DNA of 64,000 nucleotides. Source: Magnetococcales bacterium (GTDB lineage Bacteria > Pseudomonadota > Magnetococcia > Magnetococcales > UBA8363). The stretch lies in assembly GCA_015228815.1 (NCBI GenBank), contig JADGCV010000007.1:1583-65582 (forward strand). Reading direction: 5' to 3'. How positions within the stretch are numbered: position 1 is the first letter of the stretch; each line of letters opens with the position of its first letter. The notes beneath the pieces are model-generated. The model was not told the DNA's origin, did not search any database, and worked only from the letters and a program-made list of their open reading frames with translations. The position numbers were made by a program, and so were the translations under genes. Of the stretch, positions 12,539 to 49,395 are shown one piece after another.

Positions 12539-13441
12539 TCAAAAGGGAATTTCAAAAAGCGGGGGCCGTTTTTCGTCCGCCTCCATGTCCACCACCGCCG
12601 CAAGGCGGAATCCGATGTCGGGGCGTTTGGCGGTATGGCGTTCGAAGCCGCGATTGGCGCAGCGGAGCGCCTGCGTTCCATCCTTCCAGCCACCGCCGCG
12701 GATCACCCTGAAGGGGCCCTCCCCGGTGATGGCCGGGTTGTGTTCATCGTGGTTGGCATAGGCGTCGGGACGATAGGTGTCCAGGGTCCATTCCCAGACG
12801 TTGCCGTTCATGTCGCGCAAACCCAGGCGGTTGGCGCGAAGTCTTGCGACGGGATGGGTTGCGTGTGATCCCTTCTCGGCGCTCCAGGCGATCTGGCCAG
12901 GGTCGGCGCGGCCAGCGTAAACGATGTCGTCTCCCCGTTCACGACAGGCGAATTCCCATTCCGCCTCGGTCGGCAGACGGAAGCGGGCCTTTCCCTTGAA
13001 CCGTTCGTTGAGGCTTTCGCTGATCACCTCGGCATCGATCCATGAGACCTGTTCCAATGGATGGTCATCTCCCTTTTGGAACAATGATGGGTTGACCCGC
13101 ATGATCGCCTGCCATTGACCCTGGGTCACTTCGGTTTTTCCGAGCCAGAAGTCGGCGACGCAGGCCGAATGGAGCGGGCCTTCATCGTGTTCCCGCCCCT
13201 CTTTCCAGGGAGGGGAGCCCATCTGGAAACAGCCGCCGGGGACCCAGACAAATCCGATTCCGGTCACCGAATCGGTCCAGTTTTTTCCAGGAACCGGTTC
13301 TTCGTCGCCGCGACGGTCGGCTGTCGGGGGGACCAACCGTTCCCACTCGATGATCATGCTCCCTTCCGCCTCCCGGCATGACGGGAGGGCCAGGCTCCAG
13401 AGGAGGGCCAGAAACGACAGTCTCTGCAAAAAAAGGTTCAT
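12539..13441 (-). CDS. Secreted formylglycine-generating-enzyme-like (FGE-sulfatase/SUMF1 fold) protein
   Basis: Signal peptide MNLFLQRLSFLALLWSLALPSC. Motifs FVWVPGGCFQMGS, TEVTQGQW, RLPTEAEWEFACR, DMNGNVWEW and RVIRGGGW. ATGA start/stop overlap with the upstream gene. Confidence 0.85.
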   Translation of the reverse strand: MNLFLQRLSFLALLWSLALPSCREAEGSMIIEWERLVPPTADRRGDEEPVPGKNWTDSVTGIGFVWVPGGCFQMGSPPWKEGREHDEGPLHSACVADFWLGKTEVTQGQWQAIMRVNPSLFQKGDDHPLEQVSWIDAEVISESLNERFKGKARFRLPTEAEWEFACRERGDDIVYAGRADPGQIAWSAEKGSHATHPVARLRANRLGLRDMNGNVWEWTLDTYRPDAYANHDEHNPAITGEGPFRVIRGGGWKDGTQALRCANRGFERHTAKRPDIGFRLAAVVDMEADEKRPPLFEIPF

Positions 13442-41703: not shown

Positions 41704-42543
41704 TCAGACGATCTCTTTGTAAAACAGTCCAGCCACTTTCGAATAAGCCGCGGGAGTAAGGTGAATTTCATTCAACCAATCCGTGCGGTTTGGCATCATC
41801 TCACGGATATCGAGCACCCTGACACGATCCGAGCGTAGCTTGATGAGTTCGTCAGCAAAAGCGTCGATCATCCATTTTATGATCGCATATTGGTCTTTCT
41901 TATATTTGATTCCTTTTTCCTCCATATAGGGCTTGATCCACGACTTTGTTTTGAACAAACCACCCAGGAAGGCTCCACCAATATTGCTCGGAAGGGGATA
42001 GCAATAGGTGTGCGTGATGAGGATACATCTACTGTTGCAATCCATAACATGATCGATCAGTCTCTTGTAAGCCTGGATAATTTTTTCAAGAGTTTTATTG
42101 AATTCCTCTTGATTGATCCACCCCAGGGGATTTCCTGGCGTGGTATTCTGATCATGAAGGAATCGATCCATATCGCCCTCGCCGACGATATCATTCCCAC
42201 CGCCGGAGAAGAGAAAGAAATCAAGCTGTTCATAGTATTTCTCCAGTAGTCGTTTAATTTCACGGAAGCTGGAGCCAGAAAGCATCTTGACCGCTTCATC
42301 TCCAGGACTGGATAGTTGCAGCAAATTAAAATAGGACATCGACGACAGACAATCGACGACATTTGATGGTTGCCCAAAAAACACGGCCCTTCTCGGATAG
42401 GAGAACCAAGAGTCCCCCTCTGCGATGATTGTTTTACAGTGTGACCGGTATTCCAACAAGCAATCAAATTCTCCCTCTGAAACTGTAAAACGATTGGTTG
42501 CAACCAAATGAGTCCGGTTGACTGGATCGATTTCGCATGTCAT
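41704..42543 (-). CDS. SGNH/GDSL-type hydrolase (lipase/esterase fold)
   Basis: Block I IIAEGDSWFSYP, block III FLFSGGGNDIVG, block V-like DWLNEIHLT. Clearly AT-richer than dnaE, which lies 19 nt away in convergent orientation. Confidence 0.65.
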   Translation of the reverse strand: MTCEIDPVNRTHLVATNRFTVSEGEFDCLLEYRSHCKTIIAEGDSWFSYPRRAVFFGQPSNVVDCLSSMSYFNLLQLSSPGDEAVKMLSGSSFREIKRLLEKYYEQLDFFLFSGGGNDIVGEGDMDRFLHDQNTTPGNPLGWINQEEFNKTLEKIIQAYKRLIDHVMDCNSRCILITHTYCYPLPSNIGGAFLGGLFKTKSWIKPYMEEKGIKYKKDQYAIIKWMIDAFADELIKLRSDRVRVLDIREMMPNRTDWLNEIHLTPAAYSKVAGLFYKEIV

Positions 42544-42612
42544 GGTACCCTCCTCTGAATGTCAATTGTATATTACTTAACTGAAAACCATGGAACAACT
42601 ACAACTCAAAAC

Positions 42613-43008
42613 TCACACCCCCCCAGAATTCACGGAACTTTTTGTTTTTGCCTTTTTGGTCCTGGGTTTGCGCCAGCGCAGGGTCACCTTCAACTGCGCT
42701 TCGGCACCCCCTTCGGAGATGAAGGCAACCCCCACCTTGCCATGAAGTTTCAGGCCAAAGGAGACCCGGCACTCCGAGGGATCGCTGGCGCGAAAACGAT
42801 CCACCACCCGTTGCACCACCGGTTGCACCGTCTCCAAGGCTTCCATCACGGTGGTGGAAACCTTGTTGCTGAGGGTCTTTTCTCCCCGAAAGACTGGCCC
42901 GCTTTCTCCCTGCCCGGAAGGGTCATCCAGCAACACCACCTCATCGTCCGCGACTTCCGCGAAAAAAGTTGAGTTTTCATCCAGCTTTATCTCTACGATT
43001 CTGCCCAT
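42613..43008 (-). CDS. Trypco2-like (trypsin-co-occurring domain 2/CU044_2847-type) small protein
   Basis: Start at MGRIVEIKLDENSTFFAEV...GESGPVFRG...MEALETVQPVVQRVVDRF...CRVSFGLKLHGKVGVAFISEGGAEAQLKVTLRWRKP. The C-terminal EFGLKL...A...FKVTLxW pattern matches this family as I remember it. The longer track ORF start at 43227 is unsupported. Confidence 0.55.
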   Translation of the reverse strand: MGRIVEIKLDENSTFFAEVADDEVVLLDDPSGQGESGPVFRGEKTLSNKVSTTVMEALETVQPVVQRVVDRFRASDPSECRVSFGLKLHGKVGVAFISEGGAEAQLKVTLRWRKPRTKKAKTKSSVNSGGV

Positions 43009-43153
43009 CAACAGTCCCTTTCGACAAACCAGCATCTGAAAAACGATCATCATCCGCAAAATGAGGCGTTCTGTCCAGGGTTGTTTCCAAATCGAGGCAG
43101 AGATATGATTCGCATGAAAATGGGAAGGTTTCATCGTACTGGGAGGGGTTCGG

Positions 43154-45097
43154 ATGCCGGTTTCATCAACGTTGCTTTTGGCCGTTACCATGCGCATAAC
43201 GGATGGCCAACCCGTCATCACCTTCAATTCCGGGGATCGCTCCCCCTGGTCCAGGAGACCAGAAGAACCACCGCCGGATCACCGCCGCACGGAACCCCTG
43301 TGGCAATCATTGAGGGGCGACTGGACGAATCGGCGCAACATTCTGCTTCGGGTGGGCAAGGAACTGGCCGACTGGCTGCTGGATGAGGAGGCCCGCAAGA
43401 TCCTGCTTGAGGGGCAACACCCGAATGAGGATGCCCCCCGATGGCGCATCGAATGGTATTTGGACGAAAAATTTTCCCAATGGCCCTGGGAAATCGTGGC
43501 CCTGGACGGTCCGGGTCACCTGGGGGTCCATCCATCCTTCACCTGCGTTCGCAGTCACGAAGGCGAACCTGAGCATCCCCCACTTCCCACGTCGCTGGTG
43601 GTACAACTCCAAGGGGTGCAACTGAAGAAGGAACGGGCCGGATCATGGGCCGTTCTCGATACCGGCAAGGAGTTGGATCGGATTTATAACCAGATCAAAA
43701 ACTCCAGACACGACGGTCGCTTTCGGGTGGAGATGGATGCCCTGGGTCAATGGGGAACCGTATGTAACAAAATGGAAAGAGATGGCCCACCCCATATTTT
43801 TCATTTTGCCGGTCATGGTGTTGAACAGGGTGATGGACTGCTTTTCCTGGACGACCGGGACGGTCCCGACCCCATCGAAACCACCCGCATTGCACAACTT
43901 CTGGCCAACCCCCGCCGTGGCCGTCGTCTCCATCTGGTTTTTCTCAACGCCTGCCGCAGCGCCGGAACCGGCACCCCGACATTGCAACCTTTTGGCGGTC
44001 TCACCCGGCAGTTGCTCAACAAGGGCATTCCCATGGTCGTGGGATTGCTCGCTCCGGTGGAAGACAACGAAGCCGCCGCCCTGGCCACCGAGTTCTACGG
44101 TGCCATAGGAGAAGGCGATTCCGTGGATGTTGCCCTGCAAAAGGCCCGTGAACAGGTTTACATGACCGGCAGTCAGGCAGGATGGGCCTTTTTGACCCTC
44201 TCCCTCCTGGGCCCCCCCCTGCCCCTGATGGCCACACCCCCTCGATCAACCTCCACGCCGGGGGCCACGATTCTGGACTTTGGCTTCGATCAACAGGCCA
44301 AGGCGCTGAAATATTTTCTATTATTGGAGAAACCCCTCGTCATCGTAGTGCGTGGCCAAGAGGGGACGGGACATGAGCATTTCCTGAAGCAGGTTCCCCA
44401 TCTGCTCGAAAGCAAGCGGACATTGTGGAAACCTCTGGTCGGTTTTGAATTTCGCATGGCAGGAGATGCGTCACTCCACCGCCACGAACTTGCAGGTACA
44501 CTGGCCCAGGCCCTGGAAATAGCCGATGACGGCGAACAGAATGTTCTGGAGGCGCGTCTGGCCCGAGGAATTGCCGAACGCTGTGAAACCGGCAAGGTAT
44601 TGGTGTTCCAAATCAATGCAACCATCCTCCTGGAACAGGACCGCCAAGCTGAAGCGCTTCTGGTTCTGGTGCAACACCTATGGATCGCCATCATGACGCA
44701 GGCCATGCGGTTACGTACCCGTCTCCCGGTTTATCTGATCGTGCCCATCGCCACTCCCAAACAGGAAGTGCCGATTTTTGACTGGAAAAAATTGTTGACG
44801 TGGCGCAAGAAGAATGAGCAATTGCGCCTTCATTTCCAGGCCAGTGAAAAACGAATGAACAATCTTATCCAGCGACTCAATACACAGACCTCCCCCGAAC
44901 ATGACGTTCGGGTAGAAATTCTGCCCGCCCTGGAACCTTTTACGCACGACGAGGTGGCGCAATTTCTGGACAAGGCCTTGGCCATGGCCGGGAGCGAACA
45001 CGATGAAGCCCTGGAAAATATCATGGGCATCAACCATGACAACACACGCATTCTTTCCCTTCTGAAGCAAAAAATCGACAACAGGAACGCACGATGA
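43154..45097 (+). CDS. CHAT-domain (caspase-fold) protease with a C-terminal degenerate P-loop-like module
   Basis: GGGAGGGG Shine-Dalgarno upstream. CHAT dyad context PHIFHFAGHG (His221, 43814-43816) and LHLVFLNACRSAG (Cys267, 43952-43954). The C-terminal region has PLVIVVRGQEGTGHEHF, a Walker-A-like motif with His in the Lys position. Confidence 0.8.
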   Translation: MPVSSTLLLAVTMRITDGQPVITFNSGDRSPWSRRPEEPPPDHRRTEPLWQSLRGDWTNRRNILLRVGKELADWLLDEEARKILLEGQHPNEDAPRWRIEWYLDEKFSQWPWEIVALDGPGHLGVHPSFTCVRSHEGEPEHPPLPTSLVVQLQGVQLKKERAGSWAVLDTGKELDRIYNQIKNSRHDGRFRVEMDALGQWGTVCNKMERDGPPHIFHFAGHGVEQGDGLLFLDDRDGPDPIETTRIAQLLANPRRGRRLHLVFLNACRSAGTGTPTLQPFGGLTRQLLNKGIPMVVGLLAPVEDNEAAALATEFYGAIGEGDSVDVALQKAREQVYMTGSQAGWAFLTLSLLGPPLPLMATPPRSTSTPGATILDFGFDQQAKALKYFLLLEKPLVIVVRGQEGTGHEHFLKQVPHLLESKRTLWKPLVGFEFRMAGDASLHRHELAGTLAQALEIADDGEQNVLEARLARGIAERCETGKVLVFQINATILLEQDRQAEALLVLVQHLWIAIMTQAMRLRTRLPVYLIVPIATPKQEVPIFDWKKLLTWRKKNEQLRLHFQASEKRMNNLIQRLNTQTSPEHDVRVEILPALEPFTHDEVAQFLDKALAMAGSEHDEALENIMGINHDNTRILSLLKQKIDNRNAR

Positions 45098-46017
45098 CCT
45101 CCGCGAAACTGCCTCCATTCGACATCTACCGGGGCGACGGCACTCCGCGACCGGAACTGGCGAAACAGATGCCCGAAAGTGGCTTTCTGTTTGCCGAACA
45201 GGGGGCCTACCTGGCCGATGCCGACCTGGTGGAGGCGGTCAACGTCTCCCTGGCGGTGGGACAACCCCTATTGTTGACCGGGGAACCCGGTTGCGGCAAA
45301 ACCCGCCTGGCCGACAGTCTGGCCCTGGAGTTGGGACTTGGGGAGCCGTTGATCTTCCAGACCCGTTCCACCTCCCAGGCCCAGGAGCTGCTTTACACCT
45401 TCGATGCCGTGGGCCGGTTCCACCACATTCAGGTTGGAGACAAACGGGCGGCGGATCCGGTGAACTATGTCCGTTACGGCCCCCTGGGCCAGGCCATTGT
45501 CGAAGGGCGGCGGCGGGTGGTCCTCATCGATGAAATCGACAAGGCCCCCAGGGATTTTCCCAACGATTTGCTCAGCGAGTTGGACCGCATGGTGTTCACG
45601 GTCCATGAACTGGAGGAGCCTACGTGCCGCAAGGCCGGTTCCCACCGTCCTGTGGTGGTGATCACCAGCAACAGCGAACGCCAGTTGCCCCTGGCCTTTC
45701 TCAGGCGCTGCGTCTTTCATCACATTCGTTTTCCCAGCCGGGAACGGCTCGTGGCCATCATTGGCGAACGTTTGCGCGACATGAACCTGGATGGCGGGTT
45801 GGTGGAGGCGGCCGTGGACCGTTTTCAGGAGGTGCGTGGACTCTCCGGCCTGGTGAAAAAACCGGCCACCGGCGAACTTCTGGCCTGGCTCACCGCCCTC
45901 GCCATCCAGGGCAAAACGGTCGATCATGTACGCAGCCCCGCCCTTGCCCGTCTGCCCCTGTGGCAGGCGCTGCTGAAGGATCGCGATGATTTCCGCCGCC
46001 TCCAGGAAGCCGTTTGA
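45094..46017 (+). CDS. MoxR-like AAA+ ATPase
   Basis: Walker A LLLTGEPGCGKTRLA (45280-45303), Walker B VVLIDEIDKA, sensor region VVITSNS, FLRRC. ATGA overlap with the CHAT gene stop. Confidence 0.85.
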   Translation: MTSAKLPPFDIYRGDGTPRPELAKQMPESGFLFAEQGAYLADADLVEAVNVSLAVGQPLLLTGEPGCGKTRLADSLALELGLGEPLIFQTRSTSQAQELLYTFDAVGRFHHIQVGDKRAADPVNYVRYGPLGQAIVEGRRRVVLIDEIDKAPRDFPNDLLSELDRMVFTVHELEEPTCRKAGSHRPVVVITSNSERQLPLAFLRRCVFHHIRFPSRERLVAIIGERLRDMNLDGGLVEAAVDRFQEVRGLSGLVKKPATGELLAWLTALAIQGKTVDHVRSPALARLPLWQALLKDRDDFRRLQEAV

Positions 46018-49000
46018 CGCGCCACTGACCGATCTGCTTCAGGGATTGCGTCATCGTGGACTGGCCATCGGTGTCGATGACGCCCGGCGGGTGGCTCTCG
46101 CCTTCCGCCATTCCGGATCATGGTCGCGGCAGCGGCGGCTGCGAGTACTCAAGAGCCTGTTGGCCAGAAACGACCAGGAGCGCCTGATCATCGATCAACT
46201 GGCGCCGTTCCTGTTCCAGGATGCCCCCCCCGAGGAAACCTTTGTTCCCATCGACCTGCCGAAGGCCCCGGACGCCAAACCCGTCCCGGAACCTAAAACG
46301 CAACCCAGAACGCAACCCAAACCCCACGTCGGTCAACGCAACAAACGACCCCGCCTGGTGCGTTGGTTGGTATTTTTTGCTCTGCTCGCGACGGCCATTG
46401 CCTGGGTAGATTCACAGATCCAACGCCCGGCCCCAGAACCACTGCCTTCCGCCCCGGTTCAACCCGGCCCCAATCAGAAAATGCAGACGAAACTTCCAGA
46501 AGCGCCGACACCCACGGATCTGGAAATGGATACCGACCCTTATCATCCGCCTCGGGAGCCGTTTTTCCTGGGGCTGGCGGTGTCCCTGCTGTTACTGCTT
46601 GCGCCGCTTCCGGGGCTGTTGCGTCGCAAACGGGTTCGACTTCAGAAAAGAAACCTGGAGTCCCTGGAAAAATCCACGGGACACCGCGTTTATCTTCCGG
46701 GAGCGTCCGTTTGTGACCACCTGCGGCCACTTCCCATCGGCCCCTTGCGCGAGGCCGCCTTTCATCTTAACGCCCCCTCGGAACCCATACGCGCGCCCCA
46801 ACTGGACATTCCGAGAAGCATTCTGGCCACGGTGCGCCGGGCGGGCCATCTCACCCTCATCCATGACCAATGGCTGACCCGAAAGCCGGTGTTGTTCATC
46901 GAGGATGTCGCCCCCGGCATGGCCCTTTGGCCCGGATATGGCCGCCAGATTGCCCAGGCCCTGGAGCGGCAGGGCAACCGACTGCTGCACCGATTCATGG
47001 TGGAAGAACCGGGAACGCTCCATGAAGGGGCCAACCTGGAGGGTGGCATGGCCCTGGAACAGGTTCTGGCGAATCTGGGGGGCCCCACGGTGGTCATTCT
47101 TGGCCATGGCGCCTTTTTGGAACATCGACCGGAATACCGACTGGCGAACGCCCCCTGGCTGGGGCTTCTGAACAACGCCGTCTGGCTCCACCCCCAGCCC
47201 CCGGAATTATGGACGGAGGGGATCCGCCTGCTTGCCGGGCGGCTGCGCCTGGTGCCTCTGACCATGGACGGGCTGTCGCGGCTTTCCGGGGTCGCCGCCG
47301 ACAGCATCACCCCCTGGAGGCCACCACCTCCCGCCCTGGATCGTTCCACCCGCCTGGCCAACATGCGCGCCGTGGTCGGGACGGCAGGCTGGCGGTTTTT
47401 GCAGGCAGGGGCGGTGCTGGATCGTGCCGGGGTGCTGACCATGGCCCTATGGCGATCGTTGCCTCTTGAAGGCATTGTTTCGTTGGATGCAACCACCCTG
47501 GAAAAATGCCTGATTCTGGCCGAGCCCGTGCTGGGACCGGGTGGAAAAGTCCGTTTGCCCCCATGGTTTCGAGAAGCCCTTGTCGCGGAGGTGACACGGG
47601 AAGATCCGGCACTCCTGTCCCAGGTGATCCTGTGGGGAGAAAACATTCTTTCTCGCGATCTGCAAACCATCACCGCCAGGGGAACCGCCTGGGTGCAGGC
47701 GCGTCTGGCCCGTATGCGTCTCCTGGTCCTGGATCCGGAACACCGCCCGGAAGCGCGGGAGGCGATGCGCCTTTTTTCCAGGGAAGGATTCGGAGGCTGG
47801 GCCGAAGCGTCCATGGTCGCCGGGGAGCGCGTTCTTTGGCACAAAATTCCTTTGCAACGGGCCAGGCCCCCTGGACGATGGGCCTACGGGTCCGCGTTGA
47901 TCGGTGTGATCGGTATGCTCGTCATGGGAACCGGGTTGGCCAAACCGGATCTGGTGGCCCGCTTGTTTCCCCCGGAGCCTGAATTTCGTTTCCTGACCGA
48001 TACCCCCCCGTGGGCATTACTGACACCGGAAGAACCGTTGCGTTTTTATGATCGCCGGCAACGGAATGGCCCGGTCAGGATTTCCGTGAACGATTGGCCG
48101 GAAACCATCTTGCTCGCGCAACGGGATGTCCAGGGCCGGTGGTACTATGAATTGACTCCCGATGAGCGTCTGTTTTCTGACAATTCACCCTCTTATCTGC
48201 GTCTGGGGTACGGGGACCTTCGTCATGGCCCGTTCGTCTTCTACAGCCTGTCGGGTTTTCCAGTCAAATTGACCGGTATCCGGAATGACAATCAACAAGG
48301 GGTGCAATTTTCCTGGTCCCTGTCGTCCGAAATCACGGATGCCAGCATTCTTTCGTTTCACCTGTACCACTTGGGACGGGAAATTGAAAAACCACCGCCG
48401 AGAACACGGACGTTCCAGACTGCGATCTCCGCGCCAAAAGGGGGTTCCTTCAGGCTTCTCGTCAAAGTTCAAGGTCCGGGAACCGCAACCATGATCTTTC
48501 CCAGCAACCGGTTTGTCATGGATGAATCGCCAGACATGGAATTTGTCCAGATCCCTCCGGGCTGTTTCCAGATGGGTTCACCAAAGACCGATAAAGACCG
48601 GGATGACGATGAAGGTCCGGTGCATAAGGTATGTGTAGACGCTTTCTGGATGGGAAGGTATGAAGTGACGCAAAAGCAGTGGAAAGCCGTGATGGGAACG
48701 AACCCATCCTATTTTGCTTCGTGTGGCGATGAATGTCCCGTGGAGCAGGTTTCCTGGGAAGATGCGCAGGATTTCATTCGCAAGCTCGATAAACAACAGG
48801 ATGGATGTACCTATCGATTGCCGACGGAGGCGGAATGGGAATATGCGTGCCGGTCCGGGGGAAAAAATGAAACCTATTGCGGAGGAAATGATGTAAATCG
48901 GGTGGCCTGGGACAGGACCAACTCTGAAAATACGACTTATAGAGTGGGCGGTAAGGCGCCCAATGGCCTGGGCTTATATGACATGAGCGGAAATGTGTGG

Positions 49001-49210
49001 GAGTGGGTATCGGATTGGTATGACGGAAAGTTCTATGCCAATTCCCCGAGGGACAATCCGAAAGGGCCATCTTCGGGCTCCGCCCGGGTCGGGCGGGGCG
49101 GCGGCTGGGACAGCAACCCAGCCAACGTCCGCTCCGCGTATCGCAACTACGACGGCCCGGGCAGCCGCTACAGCGGCCTGGGCTTCCGCCTTTCGAGGAC
49201 TTGCCCTTAG
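45986..49210 (+). CDS. 1074-aa three-TM protein: N-terminal helical domain, CoxE-like vWA domain with degenerate MIDAS, and extracytoplasmic C-terminal FGE-sulfatase-like domain
   Basis: Overlaps the moxR-like gene by 32 nt. TM helices lie at about aa 124-141, 192-212 and 634-652. LDIPRSILATVRRAGHLTLIHDQW..KPVLFIEDVAPGM follows the CoxE-type vWA pattern, with DVSGSM replaced by DVAPGM. The C-terminus has FVQIPPGCFQMGS, RLPTEAEWEYACR, DMSGNVWEW and RVGRGGGW. Confidence 0.75.
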   Translation: MISAASRKPFDAPLTDLLQGLRHRGLAIGVDDARRVALAFRHSGSWSRQRRLRVLKSLLARNDQERLIIDQLAPFLFQDAPPEETFVPIDLPKAPDAKPVPEPKTQPRTQPKPHVGQRNKRPRLVRWLVFFALLATAIAWVDSQIQRPAPEPLPSAPVQPGPNQKMQTKLPEAPTPTDLEMDTDPYHPPREPFFLGLAVSLLLLLAPLPGLLRRKRVRLQKRNLESLEKSTGHRVYLPGASVCDHLRPLPIGPLREAAFHLNAPSEPIRAPQLDIPRSILATVRRAGHLTLIHDQWLTRKPVLFIEDVAPGMALWPGYGRQIAQALERQGNRLLHRFMVEEPGTLHEGANLEGGMALEQVLANLGGPTVVILGHGAFLEHRPEYRLANAPWLGLLNNAVWLHPQPPELWTEGIRLLAGRLRLVPLTMDGLSRLSGVAADSITPWRPPPPALDRSTRLANMRAVVGTAGWRFLQAGAVLDRAGVLTMALWRSLPLEGIVSLDATTLEKCLILAEPVLGPGGKVRLPPWFREALVAEVTREDPALLSQVILWGENILSRDLQTITARGTAWVQARLARMRLLVLDPEHRPEAREAMRLFSREGFGGWAEASMVAGERVLWHKIPLQRARPPGRWAYGSALIGVIGMLVMGTGLAKPDLVARLFPPEPEFRFLTDTPPWALLTPEEPLRFYDRRQRNGPVRISVNDWPETILLAQRDVQGRWYYELTPDERLFSDNSPSYLRLGYGDLRHGPFVFYSLSGFPVKLTGIRNDNQQGVQFSWSLSSEITDASILSFHLYHLGREIEKPPPRTRTFQTAISAPKGGSFRLLVKVQGPGTATMIFPSNRFVMDESPDMEFVQIPPGCFQMGSPKTDKDRDDDEGPVHKVCVDAFWMGRYEVTQKQWKAVMGTNPSYFASCGDECPVEQVSWEDAQDFIRKLDKQQDGCTYRLPTEAEWEYACRSGGKNETYCGGNDVNRVAWDRTNSENTTYRVGGKAPNGLGLYDMSGNVWEWVSDWYDGKFYANSPRDNPKGPSSGSARVGRGGGWDSNPANVRSAYRNYDGPGSRYSGLGFRLSRTCP

Positions 49211-49258: not shown

Positions 49259-49326
49259 GCCCTCTTTCCTTGCGACCAGCAAGCGGGCGTTTCTCAGCCC
49301 GAGGGCTGGTCGCAAGGAAAGAGGGC
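49259..49326. repeat. Perfect 22-bp inverted repeat (GCCCTCTTTCCTTGCGACCAGC ... GCTGGTCGCAAGGAAAGAGGGC) with a 24-nt spacer
   Basis: Read directly from the sequence. The spacer can itself pair (CGGGC/GCCCG). It lies 49 nt after the stop of the 1074-aa gene, in the convergent gap before the moeB-like gene. Confidence 0.85.
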
Positions 49327-49333
49327 GGGGAGT

Positions 49334-49395
49334 CCAGAGGGGCCGTGGCCCCTCTGGTGGGTCCAGGGCGAAGCCCTGGTCGCGACATTTTTTTT
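49334..49395 (+). terminator. Two further GC-rich hairpins (CCAGAGGGG-ccgtgg-CCCCTCTGG; CCAGGGC-gaa-GCCCTGG) followed by T8
   Basis: Stems read from the sequence. The T8 run is at 49388-49395, 8 nt after the last stem, so the geometry is imperfect for an intrinsic terminator. Confidence 0.4.

Follow-up and report, generated by a model that had tools for sequence, protein, structure and literature searches.

Which end of a membrane-spanning protein senses, and which end acts, when a lectin-type domain is predicted outside the membrane and the adjoining genes encode a MoxR-like ATPase and a caspase-like protease? This question is raised by a gene at positions 45986 to 49210 (plus strand) of a 64,000-nucleotide stretch of DNA from a Magnetococcales bacterium (GenBank assembly GCA_015228815.1, contig JADGCV010000007.1, positions 1,583 to 65,582 of the forward strand), which we analyzed at its full length and refer to as the window. 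A preliminary description of this DNA, made without database searches, had read the gene product as a cytoplasmic von Willebrand factor A (vWA) domain with a degenerate metal ion-dependent adhesion site (MIDAS), joined through transmembrane (TM) helices to an extracytoplasmic domain resembling the formylglycine-generating enzyme (FGE), and had suggested that it could relay an envelope signal to cytoplasmic MoxR/CHAT machinery. Our analysis confirms that observation and supports the interpretation in part. The answer that we favor, to which we assign a probability of roughly 55%, is that the protein is the vWA-type component of a MoxR–vWA ternary conflict system of the inactive-STAND (iSTAND) class, built as a transmembrane receptor.

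The locus encodes the proposed vWA-type component and the partners of an iSTAND-type MoxR–vWA ternary conflict system, a published class. Kaur et al. (2020, eLife 9:e52696, PMC7159879) described its members as a MoxR ATPase, a vWA protein, and an inactive-STAND protein with a caspase-like or trypsin-like peptidase. The window gene is a single open reading frame (ORF) of 1074 aa without an internal stop. Homologues of residues 1-850 score at E values of 2e-120 to 1e-71, and given these scores the gene is real; an exhaustive search with a profile of the conserved core recovered 835 cluster representatives at E<=1e-3, 41 of them at E<=1e-30. It closes a series of three overlapping plus-strand genes, in the order CHAT–iSTAND, MoxR-like AAA+ ATPase, and target, the ATPase gene overlapping the CHAT gene by ATGA and the target gene by 32 nt. 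We compared five homologous loci (L001, L003, L004, L038, and L039), all of which keep this order, and in four of them (L001, L003, L004, and L038) the start of the target gene overlaps the end of the ATPase gene by 32-35 nt, with no overlap in L039. The proposed link to the MoxR and CHAT genes is thus real. Among the five loci, iSTAND is on record in three and the adaptor Trypco1 in two.

The first gene of the three (43154..45097, plus strand) encodes a CHAT (caspase-like) protease fused to an iSTAND module. Its product matches Pfam CHAT over aa 66-340 (4.5e-20), and both the His (in HFAGHG) and the Cys (in FLNACRS) are present. A direct Pfam iSTAND match was not found for this protein, the P-loop of which is degenerate (GQEGTGHEH, with no Lys); it aligns over its full length with the L001 CHAT protein, however (BLASTP, 36% identity, 1e-134), and the C-terminal half of the L001 protein matches Pfam iSTAND (PF19995) above the cutoff (5.5e-09), an alignment which indicates that the third component of the window system also bears an inactive STAND module. 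The second gene (45094..46017, plus strand) encodes a MoxR-like AAA+ ATPase (Pfam AAA_5, 1e-10; AAA, 2.6e-08) with intact Walker A (GEPGCGKT) and Walker B (VVLIDEID) motifs; NCBIfam gives a partial match to the "MadB family AAA-type ATPase" at 79 bits against a cutoff of 475, and PADLOC gives weak matches to mad8 and IetA. Divergent from the CHAT gene lies a gene for a Trypco1 adaptor (42613..43005, minus strand), which encodes 130 aa from an internal Met of the ORF 42613..43227 and matches Pfam at 9.5e-21 (74.7 bits against a cutoff of 24.6). In L001 and L003, by contrast, Trypco1 lies upstream of the CHAT gene in the same direction. The plus-strand ORF 42559..42972 was considered as Trypco1 and rejected, the real gene being on the opposite strand. 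The iSTAND module and Trypco1, together with the retroelement connection and the loss of a second MIDAS aspartate set out below, go beyond what the preliminary description had noticed.

The predicted topology of the protein places its two ends on opposite sides of the membrane. Kyte-Doolittle hydropathy, computed in a 19-residue window, peaks at aa 124-142, 194-212, and 634-652 (means of 1.82, 2.31, and 1.65), in agreement with the helices that had been placed at aa 124-141, 192-212, and 634-652, and the Pro-rich linkers expected between the helices are present. Lysines plus arginines number 5-6 before and 1 after TM1, 1 before and 7 after TM2, and 4 before and 2 after TM3. These counts therefore predict an inside N-terminus, a Pro-rich outside loop of ~50 aa, an inside location for aa 213-633, and an outside location for the last ~420 aa, which is the topology first proposed. 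Three TM helices recur in most family members, and the domains that follow TM3 in paralogues are cytochrome c, OmpA, PKD, Calx-beta, TIG, Big_9, and Peptidase_M74 (a murein endopeptidase); in P0039, for instance, a TM helix at 608 is followed by cytochrome c at 668-765. The positive-inside charges and the extracytoplasmic-type domains of the paralogues together support a C-terminus outside the membrane. P0002 and P0003 (L038 6953-10972) contain another vWA-like segment, VVFDATRSM, at a long distance past TM3, which would place a vWA-like module outside the membrane besides the cytoplasmic one.

Along the chain, the protein begins with a helical domain (aa 1-80; 45986..46225, plus strand, as are all features of the gene) that is conserved in homologues and predicted to be cytoplasmic; in an alignment of nine homologues it has many invariant residues, G29, D31, D32, W46, R51, K56, and E65 among them. 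Neither this segment nor aa 653-851 gave a match in Pfam. A CoxE-like four-helix N-terminal domain has been reported in the vWA proteins of iSTAND systems (PMC7159879). TM1 (aa 124-142), the Pro-rich outside loop (aa 143-193), and TM2 (aa 194-212) occupy 46355..46621, and they are followed by a cytoplasmic alpha/beta domain (aa 255-433; 46748..47284), the candidate for a divergent CoxE-type vWA on the strength of an AlphaFold2 (AF2) model and distant Pfam matches. Next comes a helical domain (aa ~453-611; 47342..47818), seen in an AF2 model of the core as helices at core residues 232-390 with block pLDDT values mostly of 63-94; it stands where the "vWA-L" linker described by Kaur et al. (2021, PMC8195603) would stand, and by this position it may be the equivalent of vWA-L. 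TM3 (aa 634-652; 47885..47941) leads into a beta-rich, predicted extracytoplasmic spacer (aa 653-851; 47942..48538) that can be aligned among P0001-P0004 and P0008, and the spacer leads into the C-terminal domain (48539..49192).

This last domain is where the preliminary description was right about the family and where the function that the name implies does not follow. Pfam FGE-sulfatase (PF03781) matches aa 852-1069 at 7.4e-50. The best match among PDB sequences is nevertheless TvpA (2Y3C, 1.3e-31), with human FGE (2AFT) at 1.6e-26, and in the alignment to human FGE the catalytic loop is 3 residues shorter and has no Cys (GGGWDSNPA---NVRSAYRN). We read the domain as a non-catalytic, C-type-lectin-fold member of the FGE-sulfatase family (FGS), that is, as a predicted TvpA-type variable lectin domain of the kind diversified by diversity-generating retroelements (DGRs), without the FGE catalytic cysteines, and not an enzyme. 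Another FGE-sulfatase gene lies in the window at 12539-13441 (minus strand), downstream of same-strand genes whose products are a TPR protein, a ChaN+PDZ protein, and an HD-domain protein; it encodes 299 aa, matches Pfam at 6.7e-48, and has a signal of the lipoprotein type (…LALPSC). It was considered as a DGR target and rejected, having the lipoprotein signal and a C-terminus without the NNY codon footprint.

The orthologues of the target supply the retroelement itself. Directly after the target orthologue, both L001 and L003 have a bAvd gene, followed in L001 by a reverse transcriptase gene (RVT_1), and a repeat of 118-119 nt joins the 3' end of the target to a template copy; the cassette parts of the orthologues lie 75-370 nt downstream. 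Every mismatch between template repeat (TR) and variable region (VR) falls at a TR adenine (12/12 in L001, 18/18 in L003), and by this mutational signature the L001 and L003 orthologues are bona fide DGR targets. A hypermutable binding domain placed outside the membrane favors a sensor, which was also the idea of the preliminary description, and the outside-in direction of signaling is that of the model of Doré et al. (2024, PNAS 121:e2316469121, PMC10907252), in which DGR-diversified C-type lectin (CLec) proteins, some of them periplasmic, are proposed as hypervariable antigen sensors. In the scenario that we favor, the lectin domain in the periplasm would bind a variable foreign ligand, such as a surface molecule of a phage or a competitor, and TM3 together with the helical linker would carry the binding event to the alpha/beta domain in the cytoplasm. 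Remodeling of the complex by the MoxR ATPase would then switch on the CHAT protease of the iSTAND protein, and with proteolysis the infected cell would stop growing or die. Specificity would come from a DGR outside the 64-kb window or would be fixed.

The signal could also run the other way, a course that we regard as possible and rather doubtful. In the model proposed for the class by Kaur et al., iSTAND, which is predicted to be the invader sensor, detects invader nucleic acid, the MoxR–vWA pair remodels the complex, and CHAT cleaves or releases the C-terminal module of the vWA protein (PMC7159879, PMC8195603); the lectin would then be an effector that acts in the periplasm by binding or trapping invaders or the cell wall. 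The architecture of the family lends this model some weight. A highly variable C-terminal module on a constant core is a feature of the target family, the paralogues with the common core ending in FGE, Calx-beta, CarboxypepD_reg, cytochrome c, OmpA, PKD, TIG, TPR, or CHAT, and modules swapped in this way (FGE, Calx-beta, cytochrome c, OmpA, PKD, TPR) are typical of effector positions. A ligand-binding domain open to hypermutation, however, suits a receptor better than an effector, and a cytoplasmic protease could reach a periplasmic domain only by cutting the cytoplasmic linker; no cleavage site is known.

Returning to the receptor reading, we find a DGR footprint at the window locus. A VR-like segment (49097..49210), running from G1038 to the stop and putatively a DGR variable region, aligns codon for codon with the verified VRs of L001 and L003. 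Eleven codons that are AAY in the TR of L026 are NNY in the window, in the same frame and with the same third base, including AAT versus TAT. Two GC hairpins, CCAGAGGGGCC-GT-GGCCCCTCTGG and CCAGGGC-GAA-GCCCTGG, follow the VR at 49334..49379 (plus strand); each is found a single time in the window, where 0.03 and 0.00 occurrences would be expected. The second, at 49363-49379, is identical to the hairpin after the verified L001 VR; the hairpin after the verified L003 VR has the same stem with the loop GGA, and the second window hairpin recurs in L028 and L035, where its spacing from the VR motif is similar. The window therefore has the GC-rich hairpin downstream of the VR, a target-site element. 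Between the target stop and these hairpins lies a near-perfect palindrome (49259-49326; 30-nt arms, 90% complementary, 8-nt spacer), which may have been inserted as an element or may serve the convergent ThiF/MoeB-like gene as a bidirectional terminator.

As to the source of this diversity, tblastn with the L001 reverse transcriptase and Avd as queries gave no match in the window. Scanning a genome collection that lacks the window's metagenome-assembled genome (MAG) with the VR pattern returned 32 loci, all in other organisms, and no cognate TR; the TR-like sequences in those loci have 70-74% identity to the window VR. The window VR is probably either fed by a DGR elsewhere in the genome, DGRs being known to act on remote targets (PMC7159879), or recently frozen. 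A further hint comes from L014, a locus of another Magnetococcales MAG, where a gene on the reverse strand (741-2537) encodes a fusion of a Ser/Thr kinase with an FGE domain. The last ~110 nt of this gene and its downstream hairpin nearly match those of the window (it is the first hairpin, CCAGAGGGGCC-GT-GGCCCCTCTGG, that has its near match there), whereas in their remaining parts the two proteins are unrelated; identity at third codon positions is 0.79 in the VR-like segment against 0.40 upstream, and the differences within the VR segment fall mostly at positions 1-2 of NNC codons. This near-match of the 3' end and hairpin suggests that different receptor types draw on the same DGR template or on similar ones. 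We tentatively raise the idea, which is speculative, that one DGR elsewhere in the genome serves several receptor types in trans, with one template feeding different signaling outputs: the window TM-vWA receptor, linked to MoxR/CHAT, and Ser/Thr-kinase–lectin proteins like that of L014. The window protein would in that event be an outside-in, hypermutable antigen receptor with an alpha/beta domain free of a metal site.

The identity of that alpha/beta domain is the next link in the argument. VWA_CoxE is matched at E<=1e-3 by 17 of the 80 homologues scanned, the individually inspected matches being mostly partial (~model positions 9-103 of 222), and three distant members (P0081, P0071, and P0065) exceed the Pfam cutoff of 26.4 with 31.6, 28.4, and 28.0 bits in the region homologous to the window core. 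The structure prediction that the preliminary description had called for yields, from a 50-sequence alignment, a confident AF2 model of the alpha/beta domain (pLDDT 94.8) with the element order b1-a-b2-b3-a-b4-a-b5-a-b6 and strands at E48-53, E79-85/E87-92, E114-118, E145-148, and E167-170, a secondary-structure order that fits a six-stranded Rossmannoid with an antiparallel beta2-beta3 hairpin. DVAPGM lies at aa 307-312 (46904-46921), exactly where it had been noted, with both MIDAS serines lost; three homologues have DVSPSM, an intact DxSxS, in the same column. The MIDAS remnant of the window protein is thus D307-V-A-P-G311 (46904-46918), and the other MIDAS aspartate, with which strand 4 should end, is also missing: most of the 60 closest relatives listed have SD where the window has GH (aa 373-374; 47102-47107). 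A complete MIDAS, comprising DxSxS and the strand-4 Asp, is therefore absent from the window protein. Across the family the first MIDAS Asp is nearly invariant, and DxSxS is kept in 22 of 144 members. With only the first Asp kept, any peptide capture by the window protein is probably metal independent. We consider it quite probable, mainly from context and the published classification, that the alpha/beta domain is a divergent vWA; the earlier vWA call stands to the extent of a weak connection through the three distant members.

Several points weigh against a vWA-type receptor. In the window protein itself, Pfam, NCBIfam, and PADLOC give no vWA match (full length and subregions, E up to 5), and the core profiles A2 and A5 gave chance matches only among PDB sequences. 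The top Foldseek match of the pLDDT-95 model is a TIR-like domain (7e-4); vWA folds (NorD, CMG2, Rpn10, integrin beta, and MDN1) appear at E values of 0.06-0.25 and TM-scores of ~0.4, among TIR, CheY, and dehydroquinase folds, with TM-scores of ~0.4 for vWA and non-vWA folds alike, and the shallow-alignment model (pLDDT 67) gave no discriminating vWA match either, so that vWA and TIR or CheY-like folds cannot be told apart by the predicted structure. Alignment by hhalign to E. coli ViaA, as a single sequence or as a 20-sequence profile, is not significant (Prob <1%), although it places the beta1–MIDAS segments correctly (VLFIEDVAPGM against FIVCVDTSGSM of ViaA). Having lost both MIDAS serines as well as the aspartate of strand 4, the protein could be impaired as a co-chaperone. 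The topology is based on hydropathy and charge counts, and P0007, P0012, and P0016 have no TM helix, their FGE domains being joined directly to the core; cytoplasmic versions therefore also exist, and the family is not obligatorily extracytoplasmic. Within the 64-kb window, a repeat finder, blastn at word size 7, tblastn, and a degenerate pattern found no TR, Avd, or reverse transcriptase, and ongoing diversification is consequently unproven at this locus. The window system lies among housekeeping genes (dnaE, tRNA-Asn, and Cys/Met metabolism) with no obvious defense island, and in the literature searched we found no functional test of any system of this class.

Some of these same losses invite the reading that the window copy is decaying or frozen, having lost both its DGR cassette and its MIDAS, and is now either a relic or a receptor of fixed specificity uncoupled from the ancestral MoxR mode. 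No TR, Avd, or reverse transcriptase is left where the orthologues have theirs close downstream, the motif has become DxAxG and strand-4 SD has become GH, extra palindromes stand between the stop codon and the conserved hairpin, and Trypco1 is inverted relative to the orthologues. We nevertheless think this reading unlikely, for the 1074-codon ORF is intact and overlaps the ATPase gene as in most homologous loci, the CHAT dyad and the Walker motifs are intact, the hairpins are kept, MIDAS degeneracy is the rule in the family, and the cassette could act from a distance. That the C-terminal domain is instead an active formylglycine-generating or PvdO/EgtB-like envelope enzyme, with the MoxR–vWA pair as its assembly or metal-insertion chaperone in the manner of CoxD–CoxE, is highly improbable: the strong Pfam FGE-sulfatase match, partial NCBIfam matches to PvdO, GldK, and EgtB, and the known role of MoxR–vWA pairs as maturation chaperones (PMC7159879) speak for it, but those NCBIfam matches are all far under their cutoffs (90 bits against 500, and similar), the catalytic Cys loop is deleted and the best solved relative is TvpA, the orthologues are DGR targets, and CHAT, iSTAND, and Trypco1 have no place in enzyme maturation. 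Both the decayed copy and the enzymatic FGE are less likely than the sensor.

The surroundings of the system differ between the window and its homologues. The window copy sits between dnaE and tRNA-Asn, whereas homologous systems lie beside mobile or defense genes: three tandem tyrosine-recombinase genes in L038 (951-3675), an Eco29kI-type restriction enzyme with its methyltransferase and a PIN/PhdYeFM toxin-antitoxin pair in L001 (1-1962 and 4109-4722), and PIN genes in L039 (129-548) and L004 (6134-6529). Downstream of Trypco1 in the window, at a distance of 70 nt and likewise on the minus strand, is a gene for a GDSL/SGNH-like hydrolase (41704-42543), the Pfam match of which (6.6e-05) falls right on the cutoff. 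A neighboring hydrolase is usual in caspase-bearing ternary systems according to Kaur et al. (PMC7159879), and this gene was not seen in the five homologous loci. The G+C content is 0.527 at 42000-44000, across Trypco1 and the start of the CHAT gene, against 0.630 at 46000-48000, inside the target gene, and the window average is ~0.57.

MoxR–vWA ternary systems and DGR lectin sensors are predicted to be the bacterial equivalent of antigen receptors that are linked to caspase-like death proteases. The locus described here is a compact four-gene example, with the lectin predicted outside and the alpha/beta domain, MoxR, and CHAT predicted inside, and, with so clean a predicted topology, it would be a handy construct for telling the sensing end from the acting end. 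MIDAS loss is common in this branch, and "formylglycine-generating enzyme family protein" is a misleading annotation for such genes.

Among known systems, the C-terminal domain is closest to TvpA, the DGR variable protein of Treponema denticola, which is a stand-alone lipoprotein exposed outside the cytoplasm. The two have in common an FGE-type C-type-lectin fold, and the variable residues of TvpA sit at the position of the catalytic loop of FGE; the window domain differs in being tethered by a TM helix to a mostly cytoplasmic N-terminal portion of ~630 residues and in being coupled to MoxR/CHAT. With FGE proper (human SUMF1 and bacterial FGEs) it has the Pfam domain PF03781 and the fold in common, but it is without both catalytic cysteines and the loop, and the same domain in its orthologues is a target of DGR mutagenesis. 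The N-terminal portion recalls the RavA–ViaA and CoxD–CoxE pairs, in which a MoxR-class AAA+ gene adjoins a CoxE-type vWA gene. ViaA, however, matches VWA_CoxE and VWA_2 directly, which the window protein does not, and it has an intact DxSxS, no C-terminal lectin module, and no known protease or iSTAND partner.

For the whole locus, the nearest relatives are the published iSTAND and DGR systems. Like the systems of Kaur et al. (PMC7159879), the window has a MoxR-like AAA+ gene beside a gene for a vWA-type protein, an iSTAND protein with an N-terminal caspase-like peptidase, and a Trypco gene nearby. In that survey ~28% of systems have a vWA component with an N-terminal TM helix, and the C-terminal module is most often FGS (~22%). 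In the available parts of the paper the TM helix is made explicit before peptidoglycan-binding C-terminal domains and not before FGS; Trypco is paired there with trypsin-like peptidases and caspases with an alpha/beta hydrolase, whereas the window pairs Trypco1 with CHAT and transcribes it divergently; and most ternary vWA domains keep both aspartates, of which the window protein keeps one. With both TM helices and FGS modules on record among these vWA components, the fusion that the preliminary description had thought undescribed was already in print, in Kaur et al. and again in Doré et al. (PMC10907252). The loci of Doré et al., especially PB-PSB1 DGR 9 target 1 and those of reverse transcriptase clade 5A, also resemble the window. 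In them a MoxR gene directly precedes that of a target ending in a CLec/FGE domain; they also have a long N-terminal target extension unannotated by standard profiles, adjacent genes for Trypco1/2 and a caspase- or trypsin-like peptidase, in some targets multiple TM helices that put the CLec domain in the periplasm, and a proposed path from sensor to MoxR to peptidase. The differences are that those loci have the reverse transcriptase, Avd, and TR in cis, with diversification in nature shown, where the 64-kb window has none of these, and that the unannotated extension of the window protein can be linked, weakly, to a CoxE-type vWA.

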